Shown here: positions 5,622 through 60,527 of the stretch, in pieces | How positions within the stretch are numbered: the stretch's first letter is position 1 | How the letters are laid out: each line of letters starts with the position of its first letter | Virus record (IMG/VR): IMGVR_UViG_3300047483_000490 | Span: 15,636-79,635 of that record | From: a virus | DNA: 64,000 bases | Reading direction: 5' to 3' (one strand) | Program-made: the position numbers and the translations under genes | Notes under the pieces: generated by a model | Database searches by the model: none | Told to the model about the DNA's origin: nothing | The model's input: only the letters and a program-made list of their open reading frames with translations

Positions 5622-6047
5622 ATGACTTACGCAGAATTTATAGCAGAAGACCTAAAAGGATCTTATAAAATCACAGTTGACCAACCTAGAAATCCAGATG
5701 GAAGTAATCCATATATTCTCAAGCTTGGACCATTTGTCTATGTCGATGTCCAAGTAGAGATTTTAAACATCTATTCCAGATCAGTTGAGCTTTTTCTAAG
5801 CTTCGATGGACTTACAGCCAAAAAGTTATTCTTTACACCATCACACGAAGGACCAGATATTATTCACGCTAAAATCTTTAGAAAAATTGACAAGATAGTA
5901 AATAAAGCTTTATTAGAAGATGGTCGCGAGGAATGGATTCGCGAAGAATACAGAAAGAAAAAAGAAAGATTAAACAATACAATACAAGGAGTTGTTGGAA
6001 AAATAAAAGAAATAGATGGGAATCAAACAAATAATTTGCTCGATTAA
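5622..6047 (+). CDS. Hypothetical protein with N-terminal MTYAEFIAE
   Basis: 141-aa ORF. Confidence 0.7.
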   Translation: MTYAEFIAEDLKGSYKITVDQPRNPDGSNPYILKLGPFVYVDVQVEILNIYSRSVELFLSFDGLTAKKLFFTPSHEGPDIIHAKIFRKIDKIVNKALLEDGREEWIREEYRKKKERLNNTIQGVVGKIKEIDGNQTNNLLD

Positions 6048-20132: not shown

Positions 20133-20336
20133 TTTTATAAATTATTTATATACTATATAATTGAAAATCATAGTTTTGTTTAGTGCTTTATTAAAAAAGT
20201 ACAACAAGTTGTTTATCTGGTTCTATGGTTTTTGAAAATAGTTTAAAAATTGTTATATTTTATAAAATGATTACAATCTAAAATTCTAAGTTTCAAAATC
20301 TAATATATAGATAAACAATATTAGCGTGAAATAACT

Positions 20337-22064
20337 ATGCAACCGAATATTAATCAAATCAAAGATCTTGAAGAAAGATTAAGTGCAATCAACACTAAAA
20401 TAACGGCAATAGAATCAGTTAATTCTATAAATGCAACAAATACATCAGGTTCAAGTGGAACTGCAGGAACTTCTGGTTTAAGCGGAACTTCAGGTGTTAG
20501 TGGAACATCAGGTATAAATGGCCAAGACGGTATTATAGGTTCAAATGGAACAGCAGGAACTTCTGGTATCGATGGAACTTCAGGTGTTTCAGGAACTTCA
20601 GGTATCAATGGAACTTCAGGTATCAATGGAACTTCAGGTGTTTCAGGAACTTCAGGTATCAATGGAACTTCAGGTATCAATGGAACTAATGGAACTTCAG
20701 GTTCAAGCGGAACAGCTGGAACTTCAGGTGTTTCAGGAACTTCAGGTATCAATGGAACTTCAGGTATCAATGGAACTAATGGAACTTCAGGTTCAAGCGG
20801 AACAACTGGAACTTCAGGTGTTTCAGGAACTTCAGGTTCAAGCGGAACAGCTGGAACTTCAGGTATCAATGGAACTAATGGAACTTCAGGCGTTTCAGGA
20901 ACTTCGGGTTCTTCAGGTTCAAGTGGAACTTCAGGTATCAATGGAACTAGTGGAACTTCAGGTTCAAGTGGAACTTCAGGCGTTTCAGGAACTTCGGGTT
21001 CTTCAGGTTCAAGTGGAACTTCAGGTATCAATGGAACTAATGGAACTTCAGGTTCAAGCGGAACTTCAGGAGTCAATGGAACTAACGGAACTTCAGGTTC
21101 TTCAGGTTCAAGTGGAACTTCAGGTGTTTCAGGAACTTCGGGTTCTTCAGGATCTAGTGGATCTTCTGGCGTAAATGGAACTTCAGGATCTAGCGGATCT
21201 TCTGGCGCAAATGGAACTTCAGGTTCAAGTGGATCTTCAGGTGTAAATGGAGCAGCTGGTGCCAACGGAGATATAGAATATTCATATAATGTTAGTACAG
21301 TTGGATTAGATTCAAACACATATTATCCAGTTACTATTGGTTTAGGAACTAACTCTTTGACAAAAATATCTATTAGAGTTGCTTTAAATTCAGGTACTAC
21401 TCCATGGTCAACGCACCCTGCTGGTTTTTCTGTAAAATTAGTATGGTTTGCTAATGGAAATGGATGGGGAACAAACGACACAGTAAGATTAATAGATTCA
21501 TATAATTATAGATTTGTTTCAGGTATGTCACCTATCGGTGGAATTAGACAAATGCATAATTCTTCAGAAGAAGTTGTATGGCTTAGAGGTGGAGCTACTT
21601 ATTTTATGTTTGCATCTGCACCAATTAGTCCATCCGTAAAATCAAGCGCTTATAGTTTATACGGAGATACTGTTTCTCCACAAGCCTCAGCATATAATGA
21701 CGTATGGTCTTCAGCTAACGGTAGAACTGCAGCTGGTGAAGTTTACGCATCTGGTGATATTATTGCTTTTTCTGATGCAAGAGCAAAAGAAAATATAAGA
21801 TCAATCAAAAATCCATTAGATAAAATATTAAATTCTAAAGGAGTTGTTTATGATAGAATTGACACAGGTACAAAAGACAATATTGGTTTTATTGCACAAG
21901 AATTAGAACTTAGTATTCCAGAACTTGTTTCAACTGACGTCGACGGTAACAAATCGGTTAAGTATCAAAACATGGTTGCAGTTTTAGTAGAAGCAATGAA
22001 AGAACAACAAAAAGAAATAGACGAACTTAAAGCAGCTATATTTAGTTTATTAGAAAACAAATAA
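20337..22064 (+). CDS. Tail fibre with collagen-like G-T-S repeats and C-terminal peptidase S74 chaperone
   Basis: ~280 aa of Gly-X-Y; [10 protein letters not shown]...IGFIAQE...LVEAMKEQQ. Confidence 0.9.
20443..21270 (+). repeat. Imperfect 9-bp tandem repeats (GGAACTTCA/GGTTCAAGT/GGTATCAAT) encoding Gly-X-Y
   Basis: Directly visible. Confidence 0.95.
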
Positions 22065-52558: not shown

Positions 52559-52570
52559 AATATATAGAAG

Positions 52571-53320
52571 ATGAAGAAAATAAAACTATACGAAGAATTC
52601 TTAAATGAATCTAACGAAAATAAAGTTAGATCCATGTTAATTCAGTTTTTACACGAAGGTGTAAAAATGGTCTCAATTGACTCTATTAATGAGGGTTTAG
52701 TTGACAAAGCTCAATACGAATTGGACTTATTAATGAAAAATTCAGATGGAACGCCTGTTATTGGTGAGTTTGTACCTGAAGTTATGGCATTAGTAAAGAA
52801 ATTTGCTGATTCAGGTCAAAGTGGAGGTTCAGCACCTTTCACGGCTCAAATTATTACACAAGTTCTACAAAAATTATTAGCACATGAACCACTAGGTGAA
52901 GGTATTATGGGAACTGATGACGAATGGACTGATTGTTCAATATATGAAGACGCTGAAGAAGGAACTGGAACTTTTCAGAATAAAAGACTTAGTTCGGTTT
53001 TCAAAGAAGGTAAAGAAGGTGCTGCATATTATTTGGATGCAATTGTATTTACGCCTGAAGGAAAAGATTACGGTTTTACTGGTAGAGTTGCAGTAACTGA
53101 AGGTAGTGAAGAACAAATTAGCTCTTGTCAATGTATCAAATCATTTCCATTTGCACCTAAAACATTCAAGATCATTGTTAAAGAAAAAGAATATCGTAAA
53201 TTAGAAGATGGTTCTTTAGTTGAAGAAGAAGGTGGAGGCTGGTGGGAAAGCTGGTTAGCAGACCCTAAACAATTAGATGAAGTTTGGGAATATTACGATA
53301 AAAAAGAAAATAAGAAATAA
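52571..53320 (+). CDS. Leader-tagged putative internal head protein 1
   Basis: MKKIKLYEEFLNE. Confidence 0.75.
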   Translation: MKKIKLYEEFLNESNENKVRSMLIQFLHEGVKMVSIDSINEGLVDKAQYELDLLMKNSDGTPVIGEFVPEVMALVKKFADSGQSGGSAPFTAQIITQVLQKLLAHEPLGEGIMGTDDEWTDCSIYEDAEEGTGTFQNKRLSSVFKEGKEGAAYYLDAIVFTPEGKDYGFTGRVAVTEGSEEQISSCQCIKSFPFAPKTFKIIVKEKEYRKLEDGSLVEEEGGGWWESWLADPKQLDEVWEYYDKKENKK

Positions 53321-53619
53321 TGAAACATGTAAAAGTATTTGAAGACTTCTTAAATGAAGCTGAAGATGGAATGGTAACATTAAACGTTACTATTTCTAAT
53401 ATAGATCAAGAAACAGCAAATGATTTTTTAAAAATGTTTGCTTTCATGGAATGGACTGGAGCTGTAGGAGCTGGTAGAAGCTTTAAAGCGTACTTTGATG
53501 GAGACGGTCATTTCAGACCAAAAATCAAAGTCGAAGGTATTGATTTAAAAGATGTTGACTTAACAGGAGATTACGATGATGAAAAAACCGATACTCTCGA
53601 CCTAGGGTTTGGTGCATAA
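53320..53619 (+). CDS. Leader-tagged putative internal head protein 2
   Basis: MKHVKVFEDFLNE. Confidence 0.75.
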   Translation: MKHVKVFEDFLNEAEDGMVTLNVTISNIDQETANDFLKMFAFMEWTGAVGAGRSFKAYFDGDGHFRPKIKVEGIDLKDVDLTGDYDDEKTDTLDLGFGA

Positions 53620-53633
53620 ATAAAATTATAATT

Positions 53634-54173
53634 ATGAAACACATAAAATTATTTGAAGAATTCGTGACTGAAAAGAAAAAGGTTTATGATTACGGTTGTG
53701 CAATGTTGTACTTTGAATTTCCTGAGATGGAAAACTTACACAAGCAAATTGACGAAGAAGATGTTTTCGTAGATCCTAAGGATTCTACATTCGGCTTAGA
53801 AACTGAGCCACATTGTACTTTGCTTTATGGTTTACATGATGATGTAAAACTAGAAGTAATTGAAAATATAGCAAAGAATTTTGCATTTGGTAATTGTACT
53901 ATCACGAATCCATCTCTTTTTGAAAATGAAAAGTTTGATGTGTTGAAATATGATGTTGAAGGACCAAGTTTACATGATTGTAATGCAGAACTTAGTAAAT
54001 TACCACATACTACAGATTATCCAGACTATCACCCACATATGACAGTTGCTTATTTAAAATCTGGTTTAGGTAAGAAATACACTGAAATGTTAGATGACAC
54101 TAAAAAAGAGCTTACACCTAAATATATAGTGTACAGCCAACCAGATGGTACAAAAACAAAGATCGACCTATAA
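53634..54173 (+). CDS. Leader-tagged 2H phosphodiesterase, Acb1-like
   Basis: MKHIKLFEEFVTE; HCTLLY and DYPDYHPHMTVAY. Confidence 0.8.
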   Translation: MKHIKLFEEFVTEKKKVYDYGCAMLYFEFPEMENLHKQIDEEDVFVDPKDSTFGLETEPHCTLLYGLHDDVKLEVIENIAKNFAFGNCTITNPSLFENEKFDVLKYDVEGPSLHDCNAELSKLPHTTDYPDYHPHMTVAYLKSGLGKKYTEMLDDTKKELTPKYIVYSQPDGTKTKIDL

Positions 54174-54421
54174 TGAAACACGTAACTAAATTCAATGAAT
54201 TCGTAAATGAAGCAGAAGAAAGAGACACTTTAGCTGAATTAAATGAAATGACTCTAGGTCAACTTGAAAGAATTGCAGATTATGCAAACATGATTAAAGA
54301 CAGAATGACCGGTGGTGAACAATTAGAATCGTGGATGTATTCTCAATTAACAGTTTCTTTAGAAAATTTAAATGCAGTGCACGACGCAATGGATGGTAAT
54401 GATGACAAGGTTGAAAAATAA
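54173..54421 (+). CDS. Leader-tagged putative internal head protein 4
   Basis: MKHVTKFNEFVNE. Confidence 0.75.
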   Translation: MKHVTKFNEFVNEAEERDTLAELNEMTLGQLERIADYANMIKDRMTGGEQLESWMYSQLTVSLENLNAVHDAMDGNDDKVEK

Positions 54422-54430
54422 TTAAAAGCA

Positions 54431-54988
54431 ATGCAATACGTAAAACTATACGAAGATTTCTTAAACGAAGCTAAACCAGGACCAGATCCATACATGAAAG
54501 GTTTAAGCGACAAAACTAAAGAAGAAAAAGAGGAGCAGATGAAAAAGCAAGCTGAAATGGATGACGATGATGATTCAGCTTATAAAGAATTACCGGGTGA
54601 TAAAGAGGCTCAGGAAAAAGGTCAAGTTAAAACTTCTAAACACACTAAATCATATCATGAATTATACGGTGATAAAGAAGAGAAAAACGAATCTTTTTTA
54701 AACGAAGAAGAACAATCAACCGACAGAAGTGCAATTGACGATGACGCTATCGAAACAGGTTTAAAAACCAAATCTGAAGAAACTGGAGTTCCTATTGGAA
54801 TTCTTAGAGCTGTAATGAGAAGAGGCTTAGCCGCTTGGAAAACAGGTCATAGACCAGGAGCAACCCAACAACAATGGGGATATGCGAGGTGTAATAGTTT
54901 TTTAACAGGTCAACCTGGAACATGGGGTGGAGCTGATAAAGATTTAGCTAAAGAAGCTAGAAAGGCTGGATTTAATCCTAAAAAATAA
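54431..54988 (+). CDS. Leader-tagged protein with DUF5824-like domain
   Basis: MQYVKLYEDFLNE; RGLAAWKTGHRPGATQQQWGYAR.NSF. Confidence 0.75.
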   Translation: MQYVKLYEDFLNEAKPGPDPYMKGLSDKTKEEKEEQMKKQAEMDDDDDSAYKELPGDKEAQEKGQVKTSKHTKSYHELYGDKEEKNESFLNEEEQSTDRSAIDDDAIETGLKTKSEETGVPIGILRAVMRRGLAAWKTGHRPGATQQQWGYARCNSFLTGQPGTWGGADKDLAKEARKAGFNPKK

Positions 54989-55035
54989 ATGTTAGAGTTT
55001 ATACATTTATAACTAAACTATTAGATATATATTAT

Positions 55036-55707
55036 ATGAAACACAAACATCATATAATACCCAAACATATGGGAGGATCTAATGAATCTGAAAATATCAT
55101 AGAATTAAGCATCGAAGAACATGCCGAAGCTCATAGAATTTTATGGGAGAAACATGGTAAGAAACAAGACTGGTTAGCTTGGAAAGGCCTTTCAGGTATC
55201 ATTAATAAAGAAGATATAACCAAAGAAATTTTATCAGACGCTGGTAAAAAAGGAGGATCTAATGGAAAGGGAGTAACTGGTAATAGAAAGAACGGTGGAA
55301 TTATTAATTGGGAAAAGAATAAAGATAAAATCTTACAACTTTTAAGAGAAAACGGTAAGAAATACGGACATTTAGGTGGTGCTAAAGGAGATTGGATTTG
55401 GATTAATGACGAAAATGAAGAGATGAAAATATTAAAAGATGATTCTATACCAGAAGGTTGGAATCGTGGCAGATTAGAAATGAACTCATTAACTAGACAA
55501 AAGATAAAAAATTCTACAGTTGGTAAAATAAATAAAGGTCCTAAAACAAAAGAACACAAAGAAAAGATGTCAGTTTGGCGAAAAGGGCGAAAGTGGTACC
55601 ATGACACTATATCTTTTCGATCTTCTCAATTTTCTTTAGAAGAAATCATTCCAGATGGATGGGTTATCGGAAGAGGTAAAATTAATATGCCAAAAAGAAA
55701 AATTTAA
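55036..55707 (+). mobile_element. Free-standing HNH homing endonuclease (Mob-like)
   Basis: HHIIPKHMGG.N..ENI..L..EEH..AH; two IP(E/D)GW..GR repeats. Confidence 0.9.
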
Positions 55708-55711
55708 AATA

Positions 55712-56170
55712 ATGAAATACATCAAATTATACGAAGAATTTGTAGCTGGCAATAAAATCGAATGCGATAATTGTGGTTGGACATGGAAATTAGAAGATGG
55801 TGGTCATGATTTATATACATGTCATAAATGTTTTCATGATAATAGTTCAATTATGAGCGAAGCTTTTATTTTAAGAGACTTAGAAGACAAATACGGAATT
55901 GATTTAGATTTATATGATAATGGTAAGTTTTTAGAGCTGTCAAGAATAGTTATTCCTAAAGATAAAAGAGGTGAAGGCATTGGATCAGAGATCATGAAAC
56001 AAATTAATGATTACGCAGACTCTAAAGGTCTTAAAATATACTTAACACCATCTAAAGATTTTGGAGCTAGCTCAGTCTCTAGATTGGAAAAGTTTTACAA
56101 AGATCATGGTTTTGTGAAAAACACAGACAAGAGTGAAACAAGAAATACAATGGTAAGATTACCAAAATAA
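55712..56170 (+). CDS. Leader-tagged Zn-ribbon plus GNAT acetyltransferase
   Basis: MKYIKLYEEFV; CDNC...CHKC; RGEGIG; FYKDHGF. Confidence 0.8.
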   Translation: MKYIKLYEEFVAGNKIECDNCGWTWKLEDGGHDLYTCHKCFHDNSSIMSEAFILRDLEDKYGIDLDLYDNGKFLELSRIVIPKDKRGEGIGSEIMKQINDYADSKGLKIYLTPSKDFGASSVSRLEKFYKDHGFVKNTDKSETRNTMVRLPK

Positions 56171-56171
56171 T

Positions 56172-56729
56172 ATGAAGAAAGTTAAATTATTTGAACAATT
56201 CTTAAATGAATTTGAAATACCTTCTAACAAATGGATCGACATGGATCTTAAGAAGATTGACAAAGAAGGTATGGAATCAATCTGGGCAATGTACACTAAA
56301 ACTTATTTAGATGCAGGTATGGATTTATCAGCTGATGATTGGGAAGAAATGCAAGCAAAATACAAAGCAACTGCCTTAAAAGATGTAGACTCAGATCATC
56401 AAGCAGATGCATTTATCATATACAAACCTACTAAATGGGGTAATAAAATTGCTTTATTAGGCACTAATGGCAAAAAAGAAGCTAAATCTGACATAGTTAA
56501 AAAACTTTTACAGTTAGTTAACACTAAAGGTTGGTTTATTGAAGCTTCTTTAAGAATGGAAGAGTTGCTTAGTCAAGCCAAAGCTCCTGTTATTACAGAT
56601 AAAGAAATGATTGAAGATGTTGTTGGTTTAGACAAAAAGCCTGAGTTTACACAAGATGGTTACTACACAAGATTTTTATCAAAAGCAGGTAAAAGAATCA
56701 CTAAAAAAATATACGGTAAATTAAAATGA
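56172..56729 (+). CDS. Leader-tagged putative internal head protein 7
   Basis: MKKVKLFEQFLNE. Confidence 0.75.
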   Translation: MKKVKLFEQFLNEFEIPSNKWIDMDLKKIDKEGMESIWAMYTKTYLDAGMDLSADDWEEMQAKYKATALKDVDSDHQADAFIIYKPTKWGNKIALLGTNGKKEAKSDIVKKLLQLVNTKGWFIEASLRMEELLSQAKAPVITDKEMIEDVVGLDKKPEFTQDGYYTRFLSKAGKRITKKIYGKLK

Positions 56730-57445
56730 AATTAGTTAAATTATTTGAAGAGTTTATTAACGAAGGTGTACACGATAAAAACATCTTAAAAGCTATTTTT
56801 ATGGCAGGTGGACCGGGTTCTGGTAAATCTAGAGTTGTTAGAGAACTTTTCGATATACCTGAAGGAGGTATTCAGTCCGTTTCATATTCAACGGGGCTTA
56901 AAGTTATTAATTCAGATCCTGCTTTTGAACTTGAACTTCAAAAAATAGGTGTTAATCCTAAAGATTTAGCAACAATGGACACAGATGAGTTTGATAGTCT
57001 TACACAAGGTGAAGCATCTCCAAGAGGTAAAGCTAAAAAAATAACAATGTCTAGACAAAAATTATACATGAAAGGCCGTTTAGGTATGTTAATTGATGGC
57101 ACCGGAGATGATTACAAGAAAATTCAATCTAGAAAAGAAGCCATTGAAAAACTAGGTTATGATGTATATATGATTTTTGTTAATACTTCTCTTGAAGTGG
57201 CATTACAAAGAAACGCAGCGAGATCTAGATCAATTCCAGACGAATTAGTAAAAGAAATTTGGCAGTCTGTACAAGATAATATTGGTCACTTTCAAGGTTT
57301 ATTCGGTGGACAAAACATGATTATCATAGATAATTCTTTAACTGGGACTGCTCATATCAAACAAATGGAAGGCGCTATAGCCAAATTACTTAGAAAACCT
57401 GTACAAAATCACATTGGTAAACAGTGGATTAAGGCAAATTCTTAA
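56726..57445 (+). CDS. Leader-tagged P-loop kinase (zeta toxin/AAA_33-like)
   Basis: MKLVKLFEEFINE; AGGPGSGKS; IDGTG; VNTSLEVALQRN..R.R. Confidence 0.8.
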   Translation: MKLVKLFEEFINEGVHDKNILKAIFMAGGPGSGKSRVVRELFDIPEGGIQSVSYSTGLKVINSDPAFELELQKIGVNPKDLATMDTDEFDSLTQGEASPRGKAKKITMSRQKLYMKGRLGMLIDGTGDDYKKIQSRKEAIEKLGYDVYMIFVNTSLEVALQRNAARSRSIPDELVKEIWQSVQDNIGHFQGLFGGQNMIIIDNSLTGTAHIKQMEGAIAKLLRKPVQNHIGKQWIKANS

Positions 57446-57471
57446 AAAACACATATTTTTAAAAATAAATG

Positions 57472-57512
57472 CTCAAATATTTTTTTATTTGGGCTTTTTT
57501 TTGTATATTTAC
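57472..57512 (+). promoter_or_regulatory. Class I promoter repeat
   Basis: CAAATATTTTTTTATTTGGGC...GTATATTTAC. Confidence 0.7.
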
Positions 57513-57533
57513 ATTATAATTAAAAACAAGAAG

Positions 57534-57986
57534 ATGAACAAGAAAATAGTTTATATCGATTTAGACGGAGTAATGGTTGATTTAGAAGGCCACGCAATCG
57601 AAAGACACGGACCAGATGCAGTTAGACATTTAGGTAGATTAACATCAGTAGATAAAGAGTTGTTTGAGAATCCTGAACCTATCTCTGGAGCTCTAGATGC
57701 TGTTAAAACACTAATGGAACAGTATGATGTGTATTTCTTAAGCACAGCGCCATGGTCAAATGCAGAGTCTTGGAGCTCTAAACGCAGATGGGTTCAAAAA
57801 CACTTGGGTAAATTAGCACACAAAAGACTTATACTTTCTCACAGAAAAGATCTTTTAATGGGTGATTATCTTATTGATGACAGACCTAATAATGGTGCAG
57901 CAGAATTCAAAGGTCAATGGATTCAATTTGGCCAACCTGAATTTAAAAATTGGGAGCAAGTTTTAAATTACTTAATAATAAAATAA
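57534..57986 (+). CDS. 5'(3')-deoxyribonucleotidase (NT5C, HAD)
   Basis: YIDLDGV, LSTAPW, K..W, GDYLIDDR. Confidence 0.92.
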   Translation: MNKKIVYIDLDGVMVDLEGHAIERHGPDAVRHLGRLTSVDKELFENPEPISGALDAVKTLMEQYDVYFLSTAPWSNAESWSSKRRWVQKHLGKLAHKRLILSHRKDLLMGDYLIDDRPNNGAAEFKGQWIQFGQPEFKNWEQVLNYLIIK

Positions 57987-57996
57987 TATATAGACT

Positions 57997-58419
57997 ATGA
58001 AAACAGTAAAATTATTCGAACAATACGTAAATGAAAGTTTAATCTTTGATGATGGAACTACAGATATTACACAAGCATCTGAAATATTAAAAGACGCTTT
58101 AGAAAAAGAAAAACCAGGTTACATCTCTTTAAGTAAAGGTGTTTTTGGTAATGATACTATCATGCTTTTAGTTTCTTTTGAACCTAAAACAGAATGGTCT
58201 AATGGATATGTAGAGAATTCTAATTACTTTAGAATGGCTATTTACAAAGATGGCAAAATGGAAGTTTTCACACAATCTTTATATGAGCCAGGAAAACAAG
58301 TATCTTATGAAACTCGTTTGAAAATCAAATTTAGAAAAGCAACTGCAAAATCTATGAAAGATGCTGCTGATAGAGCTGTTAAATTTGTTAAAGAAGTAAA
58401 AAAAGCACTAGGTAAATAG
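57997..58419 (+). CDS. Leader-tagged putative internal head protein 9
   Basis: MKTVKLFEQYVNE. Confidence 0.75.
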   Translation: MKTVKLFEQYVNESLIFDDGTTDITQASEILKDALEKEKPGYISLSKGVFGNDTIMLLVSFEPKTEWSNGYVENSNYFRMAIYKDGKMEVFTQSLYEPGKQVSYETRLKIKFRKATAKSMKDAADRAVKFVKEVKKALGK

Positions 58420-58420
58420 C

Positions 58421-58723
58421 ATGAAACACACTAAATTATTCGAACAATTCATAACTGAAAAGAAATCAAGTTATCAAGTTTATCATAGAAGCTATACATC
58501 AGCGGTTGACACTGCTTTAGAGTATGCTGAAGCTCAAGGTTTTACTTATGATAAAGAAGAAACTGCGACCAAAATAGGTATGGGTCCTAAAAGACCAGGT
58601 GATGGTTTTACAAACAGATTTAATATCACGCTTTTTAAAGATGGTAAAGAACAAAAGAAAGCCCTTCAAATTTCAATATATGGAATGGGCGATAAATACG
58701 AACTAAACGCATATATCTCATAA
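58421..58723 (+). CDS. Leader-tagged putative internal head protein 10
   Basis: MKHTKLFEQFITE. Confidence 0.75.
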   Translation: MKHTKLFEQFITEKKSSYQVYHRSYTSAVDTALEYAEAQGFTYDKEETATKIGMGPKRPGDGFTNRFNITLFKDGKEQKKALQISIYGMGDKYELNAYIS

Positions 58724-59868
58724 TGAAAAAAGTAAAACTATTCGAACAGTTTCTAAATGAAGAAACCTCATTTCCAGCTCAATTTGAAATTGGAGAACCA
58801 GTATCATTCATAACAGCCCCTGGCGATGATCAAAGATGGGGATCAATTGTTAAAGTATCATTCACAAAAGCAAAAGTTTTCTATGATATATTAGATGATT
58901 ACACATCAACTGTGATTGGTAACATTGATTCAGTGTTTGTGAAAACATTAAGAAGCAATATAAAATTAGAAGAACCAACCAATGAGTCGGTAAACGTTAA
59001 ATATTTTGAACAATATTTAAATGAAGTAACTCAACACTCTGTTTCAGGCAATTCTGGCAGAACTTATACAACATTAGATAACTCAAAATATGAGTTGAAA
59101 AAAGATGTTAAAGATGCTAAAATCGGTGACTACGTCGATGTAATTTTACCAAAAGGTACTATTATCACAAATCTTCCAGGCGGTGTATTTGCAAATCACA
59201 AAGATCTTAAAGACAAATATTGTACAGGTTATAAAGCTGCTAAATGGCATGATAAATTTGGAGTTGCGATTAGAACAATGCCAGATACTTTAGAAGCTAT
59301 TGAAAATAATTCTAAAATTTTAGAATCTAAATATGATGGTAATATTGCAGGAGATGCTGCAGAATATATTGCTAAAGAATTATCACATTATGTTAAAGGA
59401 ATCATTGACCAATCAAATGATAAACAAACATACTTCCATTTAAAAGACAAATCATATAAAAATAAAGTTATTAAAACTTTAAAGGATATTTATGGTTTAG
59501 ATGCTCAAGATGGTGGAACTCAATTCTCACCTTCACCGACTATCAAATTTGACAATGATGTAATATTAGAAGCTATCGTTAATGAAGCTAAAGATGCTAC
59601 TAGAGAAGAAATCATGGATTTGATGGAAACTAAATATAAAATTAGATTTGTTAGAACTTCTGAAGAATTTGATGGCGAAAAAGATGGTATTTGGATTGCT
59701 GGCGATAACGGAGAAGAATTAAGCGGTAACAAAATATTTGATTATTACAACAAGAGCGCTAAATATAAAAACGGTGTACTTAAGAACGTTGTAGATGCTA
59801 TTGAGAAAAAAGGTTGGTGGTTTTCTTGGAATGATCCAGGAACAATGATGATTTGGCCAAAAAATTAA
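58723..59868 (+). CDS. Leader-tagged multi-module protein (putative polyprotein)
   Basis: MKKVKLFEQFLNE; internal VKYFEQYLNE, ILES and ILEAIVNEA. Confidence 0.75.
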   Translation: MKKVKLFEQFLNEETSFPAQFEIGEPVSFITAPGDDQRWGSIVKVSFTKAKVFYDILDDYTSTVIGNIDSVFVKTLRSNIKLEEPTNESVNVKYFEQYLNEVTQHSVSGNSGRTYTTLDNSKYELKKDVKDAKIGDYVDVILPKGTIITNLPGGVFANHKDLKDKYCTGYKAAKWHDKFGVAIRTMPDTLEAIENNSKILESKYDGNIAGDAAEYIAKELSHYVKGIIDQSNDKQTYFHLKDKSYKNKVIKTLKDIYGLDAQDGGTQFSPSPTIKFDNDVILEAIVNEAKDATREEIMDLMETKYKIRFVRTSEEFDGEKDGIWIAGDNGEELSGNKIFDYYNKSAKYKNGVLKNVVDAIEKKGWWFSWNDPGTMMIWPKN

Positions 59869-59874
59869 TAAGAT

Positions 59875-60162
59875 ATGAAACACATTAAACTATACGAAGA
59901 ATTTGTTAACGAGGCTCAAATTGGAGATAAATTAACTAAGAAATTTACAGAATTGACTGGAATTTCAACATGGGACAAAGTAACTTTAAAATCAGAGTCT
60001 GGAACTTGGACCGTTGTAAGATTATGGGCACCAAAAGATAATGGAGGTATGAATCCTGGATTACATATTGAATTAACTAAAGGTAGTTCTAGAGAACATT
60101 TTCAAGCAATGGATGAAGATGGAACTTTAACAGAATTTGGAAAAGGACTTAAAAAGAAATAA
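59875..60162 (+). CDS. Leader-tagged putative internal head protein 12
   Basis: MKHIKLYEEFVNE. Confidence 0.75.
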   Translation: MKHIKLYEEFVNEAQIGDKLTKKFTELTGISTWDKVTLKSESGTWTVVRLWAPKDNGGMNPGLHIELTKGSSREHFQAMDEDGTLTEFGKGLKKK

Positions 60163-60527
60163 TGAAACACATGACAAATTTTAATTCATTTGTTAACGAA
60201 TCTGCAAAGTCAGATAAATTAACACCGTTGTTAATAAATGCTATTGACAAAGTTGACAATTCTCTTTCTTATACAGATTTTGCAATTGCGATTGCAAACA
60301 TCATCAAAGACGAATACGGTTCTCACAATATTAAACCATTTATGGCTGTTCTACAAAAAGAATTAAGCGTTAAAGAATCAGAAGAATTAGAAGAATCAAA
60401 AGACTCTGATACATTCGTTGGAAATCCAAGCGAAGACTCAAGAATGGTAGACATTAGAGCTTTTAGAGGCGCAGTTAAAGATCTTACTGATTTTATTGAC
60501 GATAAAATTAAAGAAACACAAAAATAG
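60162..60527 (+). CDS. Leader-tagged putative internal head protein 13
   Basis: MKHMTNFNSFVNE. Confidence 0.75.
   Translation: MKHMTNFNSFVNESAKSDKLTPLLINAIDKVDNSLSYTDFAIAIANIIKDEYGSHNIKPFMAVLQKELSVKESEELEESKDSDTFVGNPSEDSRMVDIRAFRGAVKDLTDFIDDKIKETQK

Follow-up and report, generated by a model that had tools for sequence, protein, structure and literature searches.

The window analysed here, from an uncultured T4-like jumbo phage, is a 64,000-nucleotide (nt) stretch of virus record IMGVR_UViG_3300047483_000490, whose contig (79,635 bases) is an incomplete virus record, about 30% complete; array coordinates are given in window numbering. Between positions 52571 and 60527 it carries, on the + strand, 13 near-consecutive open reading frames (ORFs) that share an N-terminal leader, MK-x-(I/V/T/M)-(K/T)-(L/V/K/N)-(F/Y)-(E/N)-x-(F/Y)-(L/V/I), called the tag below, and whose products (cargos 1 to 13; Table 1) are otherwise unrelated. 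The leader was seen in the ORF listing and in a six-frame regular-expression scan of the 79,635-base contig, where a strict expression for the first 11 residues gave exactly 13 matches, all at the starts of these ORFs; residue frequencies predict about 2.6e-4 matches by chance. The tag ends in (N/T)-E in 12 of the 13 ORFs, with 12/13 fitting [LIV]-[NT]-E. The exception is ORF 55712 (MKYIKLYEEFVAGNK...; the longest-ORF call begins at 55655, with the tag ATG at 55712), whose orthologue in the related contig G001, described below, has a complete ...FINE. With the first 14 residues removed, all-against-all BLASTP of the 13 proteins gave a best E of 0.15, and Pfam searches on the 13 returned five different families (Tad3, 2H phosphoesterase/Acb1, DUF5824, GNAT and Zeta_toxin/AAA_33 kinase). 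A 14th copy of the tag, VNVKYFEQYLNE, lies internally (about 58990-59025) in the 381-amino-acid (aa) ORF 58723.

At positions where two tag copies have the same residue, 29% use different codons in pairwise comparison. Synonymous usage at the F, E, N, I and Q of the tag is about that of the gene bodies, and the DNA upstream of tagged ORFs shows no conservation, which together point to selection on the peptide. AAA and NNA codons are somewhat enriched at tag positions 2, 5 and 6. The preliminary description of this locus had reported the 13 starts, the (N/T)-E continuation in all but one, unrelated bodies, peptide-level conservation with differing codons and the absence of the leader from the intervening HNH and NT5C genes, and each of these observations was borne out, as were the cargo types that it had named (2H phosphodiesterase, GNAT, kinase and DUF5824), which match Pfam families.

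Table 1. Genes and regulatory features of the tag array (window numbering)
Feature	Position	Strand	Evidence or remark
Late-type promoter motif ATATATAG	52560..52567	+	11 nt before first tagged gene
Cargo 1, Tad3-like, 249 aa, tag MKKIKLYEEFLNE then S	52571..53320	+	Pfam Tad3 PF25185, 4.8e-22, 78 bits
Cargo 2, acidic, 99 aa	53320..53619	+	phrog_10928 (function unknown); G001 orthologue 87% identity
Cargo 3, 2H phosphodiesterase, Acb1-like, 179 aa	53634..54173	+	Pfam 2_5_RNA_ligase2 29.3 bits, Acb1 27.3 bits (cut-off 27)
Late-type promoter motif, inside 3' end of cargo 3	54122..54129	+	Same place conserved in G001
Cargo 4, acidic, 82 aa	54173..54421	+	G001 orthologue 121 aa, insert after tag
Cargo 5, DUF5824, 185 aa	54431..54988	+	PF19141, 4.1e-17; absent from G001 array
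HNH-type homing endonuclease, untagged, array insertion	55036..55707	+	phrog_655, 1.5e-13; absent at this G001 place
Cargo 6, GNAT acetyltransferase with zinc-ribbon insert	55712..56170	+	Pfam Acetyltransf_7/10/1; tag without final N-E
Cargo 7, GNAT-like fold, 185 aa	56172..56729	+	All top Foldseek matches are GNAT enzymes
Cargo 8, P-loop kinase (Zeta_toxin / AAA_33 type), 239 aa	56726..57445	+	PF06414 4.2e-10, PF13671 2.3e-7
Intrinsic terminator (57471-57494), then class B motif GTATATTTAC at 57503	57471..57512	+	Terminator scan and motif scan
NT5C 5'-nucleotidase, untagged	57534..57986	+	PF06941, 4.5e-17; own terminator and early-type promoter
Late-type promoter motif	57986..57993	+	11 nt before cargo 9
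Cargo 9, basic, 140 aa	57997..58419	+	ORF listing
Cargo 10, 100 aa	58421..58723	+	ORF listing
Cargo 11, mosaic, 381 aa, internal tag copy FEQYLNE	58723..59868	+	G001 comparison
Cargo 12, basic, 95 aa	59875..60162	+	ORF listing
Cargo 13, acidic, 121 aa, divergent tag MKHMTNFNSFVNE then S	60162..60527	+	C-terminus matches end of G001 array gene

Spread of the tag and its likeness to head proteins

G001 is a complete contig of 256,444 bp that has terminal repeats; the contig of the window runs collinear with it, at about 80-90% nucleotide identity, over G001 positions 190-256 kb and 1-26.6 kb. G001 has the same array, with 10 orthologues (70-98% identity), and a head module consisting, in order, of a T4 portal (Portal_T4, 8.5e-68), a 129-aa acidic protein, an S77 (gp21-family) protease (PF03420, 45.7 bits, cut-off 27) that continues into some 400 scaffold-like residues, and a capsid protein of the Gp23 type (3.8e-43). 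The protease additionally matches Peptidase_S80. The capsid protein is closest to those of a 462-kb uncultured phage, of Lak phages and of two cultured Tenacibaculum phages, PTm1 and pT24. In PTm1 the genes follow the same order, and one of them is annotated as 'prohead core scaffolding protein and protease'. Because of these relatives and the PTm1 gene order, the host is likely to belong to the Bacteroidota. A megablast of the array against phage records gave no match.

The two arrays differ in cargos 4-5 and the homing endonuclease, and breakpoints between them lie at or near tags. Cargo 11 is a mosaic, since residues 1-89 and 278-381 match one G001 gene (A) and 190-284 another (B). Its layout is gene A residues 1-89, the internal tag with unique sequence, gene B residues 7-101 and gene A residues 78-182, and ORF 60162 carries the end of gene B. 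Together, the mosaic and the differing cargos indicate that the array turns over by cassette exchange. If the internal tag were cut, ORF 58723 would give two products.

The spread of the tag, for which the preliminary description had proposed a leader scan of the genome and its relatives, was followed with a degenerate DNA pattern over viral contigs; the counts are lower bounds. At least 118 stretches of viral contigs match, and they contain at least 212 distinct tagged ORFs (67-451 aa) in at least 116 body families. Among the matches listed, the consensus is MKHIKLFEQFINE, conservation ends sharply after Glu13 and the residue following it is A, S, K or G in 74%. An S77 protease is encoded in 15/15 of the tag-bearing contigs of ≥ 140 kb that were tested (frames of 240-831 aa, 14/15 at 577-831), which is consistent with a capsid-targeting role, but these contigs form one clade and so are not independent proof. 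Neither Tenacibaculum phage PTm1 nor the huge phage LR745206 contains the exact DNA pattern; the latter instead has shorter MKxLKxFE-type starts.

Homologues of cargo 7 (n = 167) and cargo 3 (n = 706) show how the tag is joined to the body. Conservation of the body sets in at the same residue throughout each of the two families, while the N-terminus is lineage-specific, with tag types MKxxKLFEQFxNE, MxxFKKYxDFLNE, MISLSNILNE and MIKLNDILKE (generally MIKLxxILxE), and Glu13 is an invariant alignment column across tag types. A hydrophobic-x-Glu ending occurs in 298/299 tags of three families (2H, GNAT-fold and Tad3-like), versus 40% of random 15-residue windows, and the canonical form in only about 44% of the tags of these families. 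Relatives without the tag simply start later: the solved Tad3 chain in the Protein Data Bank (PDB) begins about 40 residues after its tagged homologue, and the 2H protein of the cultured Maribacter phage Molly starts in the body, with neighbours that share no tag. AlphaFold2 (AF2) models of cargo 7 and cargo 3 are confident overall (predicted local distance difference test, pLDDT, 86 and 89), with pLDDT falling below 50 exactly at residues 1-13 and 1-14, respectively.

Other tag-like starts were also seen. On a 237-kb contig, three adjacent unrelated genes (L146:9141-10549, +) carry a different tag, MI(K/R)L..(I/L)L.E; this island, one gene of which is a cargo 7 orthologue, lies on the strand opposite to its neighbours. 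In the window itself a 141-aa ORF (5622-6047, +; 855-1283 in G001) starts MTYAEFIAE (MTYAEFIAEE in G001), approximately the T4 tag MKTYQEFIAE minus the lysine. Neither Pfam nor PHROGs gave a match for this protein, whose start may be a second tag variant. An R2K-clade ATP-grasp enzyme in G001 (144950-145900; L136:4953-5900, minus strand) has a tag-like start, …MLFEQFLNES, and a late-type promoter, and is a further candidate for a packaged host-modifying enzyme.

Components of the head itself resemble the tag. Across 73 protease-scaffold loci (45-100% identity), a 110-140-aa ORF between portal and protease, at the position of the T4 core proteins gp67/gp68 and hence called the core protein here, has a tag-like start in almost every locus (for example MKHVKLFEEFLSE, MKKYLKTFEQFINE and MKTIKTFEQFISE; the exception is L164). 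The G001 core protein had no match in Pfam or PHROGs. In most lineages the capsid protein starts M-A-(N/Q)-L-I-N-E followed by A-E-I (MAQLINE/AEI in G001), with variants MANLLNE, MQRINE and MNLINE, and the scaffold contains 6-12 repeats of [Y/H][LIV]AE, which resemble the end of the tag. When every internal position of the G001 proteins was scored with a profile of tag positions 7-14, the protease-scaffold led in top-0.1% matches (7 against 0.58 expected, P = 2.5e-6). A G001 protein of 250 aa (188946-189698) also has several internal tag-like sites (VVTE/A, LVNE/A) and is a candidate for a multiply cleaved head protein.

The likeness extends to T4. Its ipII and ipIII start MKTYQEFIAE followed by A, and the heptad YQEFIAE outscores all 67,957 internal 7-mers of G001 on the tag profile. 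T4 gp23, annotated as cleaved by gp21, carries FLTE/AEI, which we take to be the cleavage site, and FGSFLTE is in the top 6e-5 on the same profile. T4 gp22 is rich in [LI]AE.

Cargo proteins and promoters

Cargo 1 matches the Tad3 chain 9b7d_B over the whole length of Tad3 (E 6.2e-34; query 47-244 against chain 7-190); the tag and an extra helix of about 30 residues are found only in cargo 1, at its N-terminus. By sequence it is a clear Tad3 homologue and a putative inhibitor of ThsB, and so of Thoeris: characterised Tad3 is known to bind the Thoeris sensor ThsB (PMC13728456).

Cargo 3 has two HxT motifs (PHCTLLY and HPHMTVAY) and an Acb1-like motif, YPDYxPHxT, and its model has the 2H fold. 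The top Foldseek matches were Usb1, the phosphodiesterase of phage BCSR5 and the anti-CBASS protein Acb1 (7t27 and 7t26, ranking 3rd and 6th), and a phmmer comparison with 7t26 was weak (E 0.36). A counter-defence role is plausible from the model, in which Acb1 is among the best fold matches but no closer than Usb1 or the other phage enzyme. The counter-defence kit put forward in the preliminary description therefore finds support for one cargo, the Tad3 homologue, and is plausible for a second, this 2H phosphodiesterase.

In Pelagibacter phage HTVC008M a domain homologous to cargo 5 (DUF5824) forms the end of a protein of 596 aa. Metagenomes also contain single proteins of about 410-420 aa in which a Tad3-like domain is fused to DUF5824 (P0028, P0036-P0040, P0043 and P0045), a hint that DUF5824 either assists a defence inhibitor or acts in a similar way. 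The G001 orthologue of cargo 6 has 116 aa, a complete tag and no insert. Cargo 7 had no match in Pfam, cargo 9 no informative match in PHROGs or the protein Atlas, and cargos 4, 10, 11, 12 and 13 no match in Pfam or PHROGs; protein cluster look-ups returned only 'hypothetical protein' with no cultured source. The predicted mature cargos are of 8-42 kDa and range from strongly acidic to basic.

Two upstream motif classes dominate the window's contig and G001. Class A, ATATATA[AG], is enriched 14- to 24-fold upstream of ORFs; one variant, ATAAATA, is similar to the T4 late core, TATAAATA. In G001 class A is found a short distance upstream of every head and tail gene, including those for portal, protease-scaffold, capsid, sheath and tube. 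In the window it precedes lysozyme and fibre-like genes as well as the array (for example at 20303, 22073, 25979, 52560 and 57986). A repeat-rich region at about 20440-21270, in a 575-aa ORF (20337-22064), matches G001 at 149-150, 159-160, 184-185 and 238 kb (64-71% identity), and probably belongs to a family of collagen-like fibre genes. Class B, GTATATTTAC...TAATTAAAA, often comes directly after a GGGC-T-run terminator and precedes nucleotide-metabolism and other non-structural genes (for example at window positions 2913, 14207, 27865, 29050, 32128, 57503 and 62896). The combination of terminator and class B motif resembles a mobile regulatory cassette.

The nearest upstream motif is of the late type for 12/12 tagged ORFs, compared with 58:55 for other ORFs (P = 6e-4; ORFs share operons, so that about three promoter units count), and for 21/22 tagged ORFs in G001. 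The untagged NT5C gene is set off by a terminator and class B motif on its 5' side. Defence inhibitors made only late could help only the next infection, which would fit packaging.

Interpretation and competing explanations

The tag is probably a capsid-targeting and processing propeptide of the T4 type, mimicking the scaffold and core proteins, cut after Glu by the S77 protease and leaving its cargo to be delivered with the DNA. Its polycistronic units (52571-57445 and 57997-60527) would be read from the T4-late-like promoters at 52560, 54122 and 57986, so that cargo would be made during prohead assembly. The unanchored amphipathic tag imitates both the scaffold repeat (aromatic-x-x-aromatic/His-[LIV]-A-E) and the start of the small core protein, and because of this resemblance the cargo would co-assemble into the scaffolding core. 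Once the shell is closed, cleavage by the S77 protease would take place behind Glu13, at a hydrophobic-x-Glu site followed by a small residue; sites of this kind are also present in the scaffold and at the capsid protein N-terminus. Mature cargo would thereby be freed in the head. When the virion infects its next host, the cargo would exit together with the DNA and, by homology and as for the T4 internal proteins, act before phage gene expression: the Tad3-like protein on ThsB, the 2H phosphodiesterase on cyclic-nucleotide immune signals, and the kinase and two GNAT-fold proteins on unspecified targets. The modular address tag proposed in the preliminary description is thereby partly supported, by the likeness to the T4 tag and cleavage sites and the S77 protease-scaffold in large tag-bearing contigs, and further by the core-protein tag, the late-type promoters, the swap of lineage tags at the Glu and a disordered add-on without counterpart in untagged homologues.

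Several observations weigh against this explanation. Packaging, cleavage and injection are all argued by analogy with T4, and to our knowledge Tad proteins and Acb1 act in studied phages as expressed, not packaged, proteins. A virion proteome was sought for any tag-bearing phage and none was found; a paper on freshwater jumbophages contains no virion proteomics. A search of the window's contig for a head gene or protease likewise found none; a gp21-like prohead protease, on which the preliminary description had made its proposal depend, is missing there but present in G001 and the large tag-bearing contigs, and the head evidence comes from a relative of about 80-90% identity. As a motif, hydrophobic-x-Glu is short and occurs often, the Glu is missing from cargo 6, and distant Tad3-like homologues show decay of the tag, with Asp for Glu or the motif lost. 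The label 'late' derives from the genes that the motif precedes, and in G001 a 269-aa ORF (122080-122889) with a weak tag, MNKIKSYTQFLNES, is preceded by a terminator and a promoter of the early type, a possible exception to the late-promoter pattern. The A-biased codons at positions 2, 5 and 6 may reflect some selection on translation start.

This codon bias, the absence of an upstream Shine-Dalgarno sequence and the reliance of packaging on the T4 analogy leave room for an N-terminal module without any capsid role, such as a peptide that docks to a phage chaperone or to a modifying enzyme, a signal for degradation or timing, or an enhancer of translation start. It is nevertheless unlikely, since the free synonymous sites at F, E, N, I and Q indicate selection on the peptide, the terminal Glu is the most conserved residue and is kept across different tag types, structural genes with the same promoters are untagged, and there are matches to the tag in the scaffold repeat, at the start of the core protein and in the T4 tag. 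A secretion or lipoprotein signal was rejected from the sequence, the tag being net acidic and without a hydrophobic core. The tagged proteins might, on the other hand, be packaged and trimmed yet serve the virion, as inner-body, DNA-organizing or ejection-channel parts, and not the attack on the host. Several cargos are small, strongly acidic or basic and without recognisable domain, the tag is also on a structural core protein, and phiKZ-like and SPN3US-like phages are reported to pack many processed proteins of unknown role. Against this stand five cargos that are enzymes or a defence inhibitor (Tad3, 2H phosphodiesterase, GNAT, P-loop kinase and DUF5824) and a turnover of array content between close relatives that is typical of accessory rather than structural genes, and we give a purely virion-serving role a low probability.

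Explanations that do without a function of the peptide fare worse. The 39 shared bases could be mainly a recombination handle for cassette shuffling, with the peptide as a by-product, as the internal tag remnant in mosaic ORF 58723 and the breakpoints at or near tags might suggest. Yet the codon variation between copies and the lack of conserved DNA upstream led to the rejection of a pure DNA-level element, and amino-acid conservation over hundreds of divergent contigs requires selection on the peptide, so that this is very improbable as the main role; shuffling may be a side benefit of a functional tag. The shared N-terminus alone speaks for diverged paralogues or a chance pattern. Paralogy is ruled out by the five Pfam families and by the lack of similarity past residue 14 (best E 0.15), and chance by 13 matches where 2.6e-4 were expected, so that we discount both almost entirely.

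Known packaging systems and significance

T4 Ip1-3 share only an N-terminal packaging leader, are injected and each block a defence nuclease (PMC12373910, PMC3012670). Their capsid-targeting sequence (in IPI, IPII and IPIII MKTYQEFIAE followed by A, removed by gp21) is, like the tag, a short N-terminal peptide on otherwise unrelated proteins that ends in aromatic-[LIV]-x-Glu before a small residue. The phages that carry either peptide have a head module of the T4 type (portal, core, protease, scaffold and Gp23); in both cases the loci vary between relatives and the cargo is tied to counter-defence. The tag differs in having 13 residues, with three extra (I-K-L) after M-K-x, and in scale: 13-14 tagged genes per array and about 20 or more per genome, compared with 3 in T4, and > 100 environmental cargo families. 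Cargos here include enzymes and a Thoeris inhibitor, in contrast to the small GmrSD inhibitors of T4. In addition, the protease is fused to the scaffold, the conserved core protein carries the same tag and the host is probably in the Bacteroidota; packaging here is predicted from genes.

The giant phages phiKZ, 201phi2-1 and SPN3US are likewise jumbo myoviruses in which many head-loaded proteins are trimmed at x-x-Glu by an S77/S80-type protease. Their sites are S/A/G-x-Glu and their propeptides longer and dissimilar, and we know of no single conserved N-terminal tag in them. Their virion contents were shown by mass spectrometry, whereas the tagged proteins described here are known from genes alone.

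P1 Dar proteins are reported to be counter-defence proteins built into the head at morphogenesis and delivered with the DNA (PMC12810830); they are packaged by an ordered protein hierarchy, not by a portable 13-residue tag, and have no sequence relation to the proteins described here. Polyvalent proteins, multi-domain proteins found in phages and conjugative elements, are also injected with the DNA, have reported ART and GNAT domains and were suggested to include signal-degrading enzymes (PMC7824862). Their domains are fused in one giant protein, in contrast to the separate small tagged genes of the array, and mosaic ORF 58723 with its internal tag may be a small step towards such a fusion. 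Solved Acb1 (PDB 7t26/7t27), which shares the 2H fold and HxT motifs with cargo 3, has no tag.

A full-text search for KLFEQF/KLFEEF found no paper describing the tag array, and topic searches gave T4, P1 and giant-phage work only. The principle is already known from T4; new are the scale, the clade, the longer tag with its core-protein counterpart, the fused protease-scaffold and the signalling-immunity cargos.

More generally, Bacteroidota T4-like jumbo phages may possess a programmable head-loading system, in which a portable tag of about 13 residues addresses > 100 protein families and a shuffled effector set is delivered with the DNA. This is a tentative proposal, on balance doubtful at such breadth. 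The families would include signalling-immunity inhibitors (Tad3-like and Acb1-like) and host-modifying enzymes, making the system a counterpart of secretion-system effector repertoires.

Should the tag act in the way known from T4, a phage could bring in ready-made protein inhibitors of Thoeris and CBASS-type signalling as its DNA enters the cell, in addition to expressing them later, which would change the view of the timing of the arms race between phage and bacterium. The tag would also mark injected proteins from sequence, so that the > 100 unknown families of environmental phages would become candidate host-directed effectors. The T4 tag has already been used to load foreign proteins into capsids, and the tag described here would be a short, portable and self-removing packaging signal for the same purpose in phages of the Bacteroidota.

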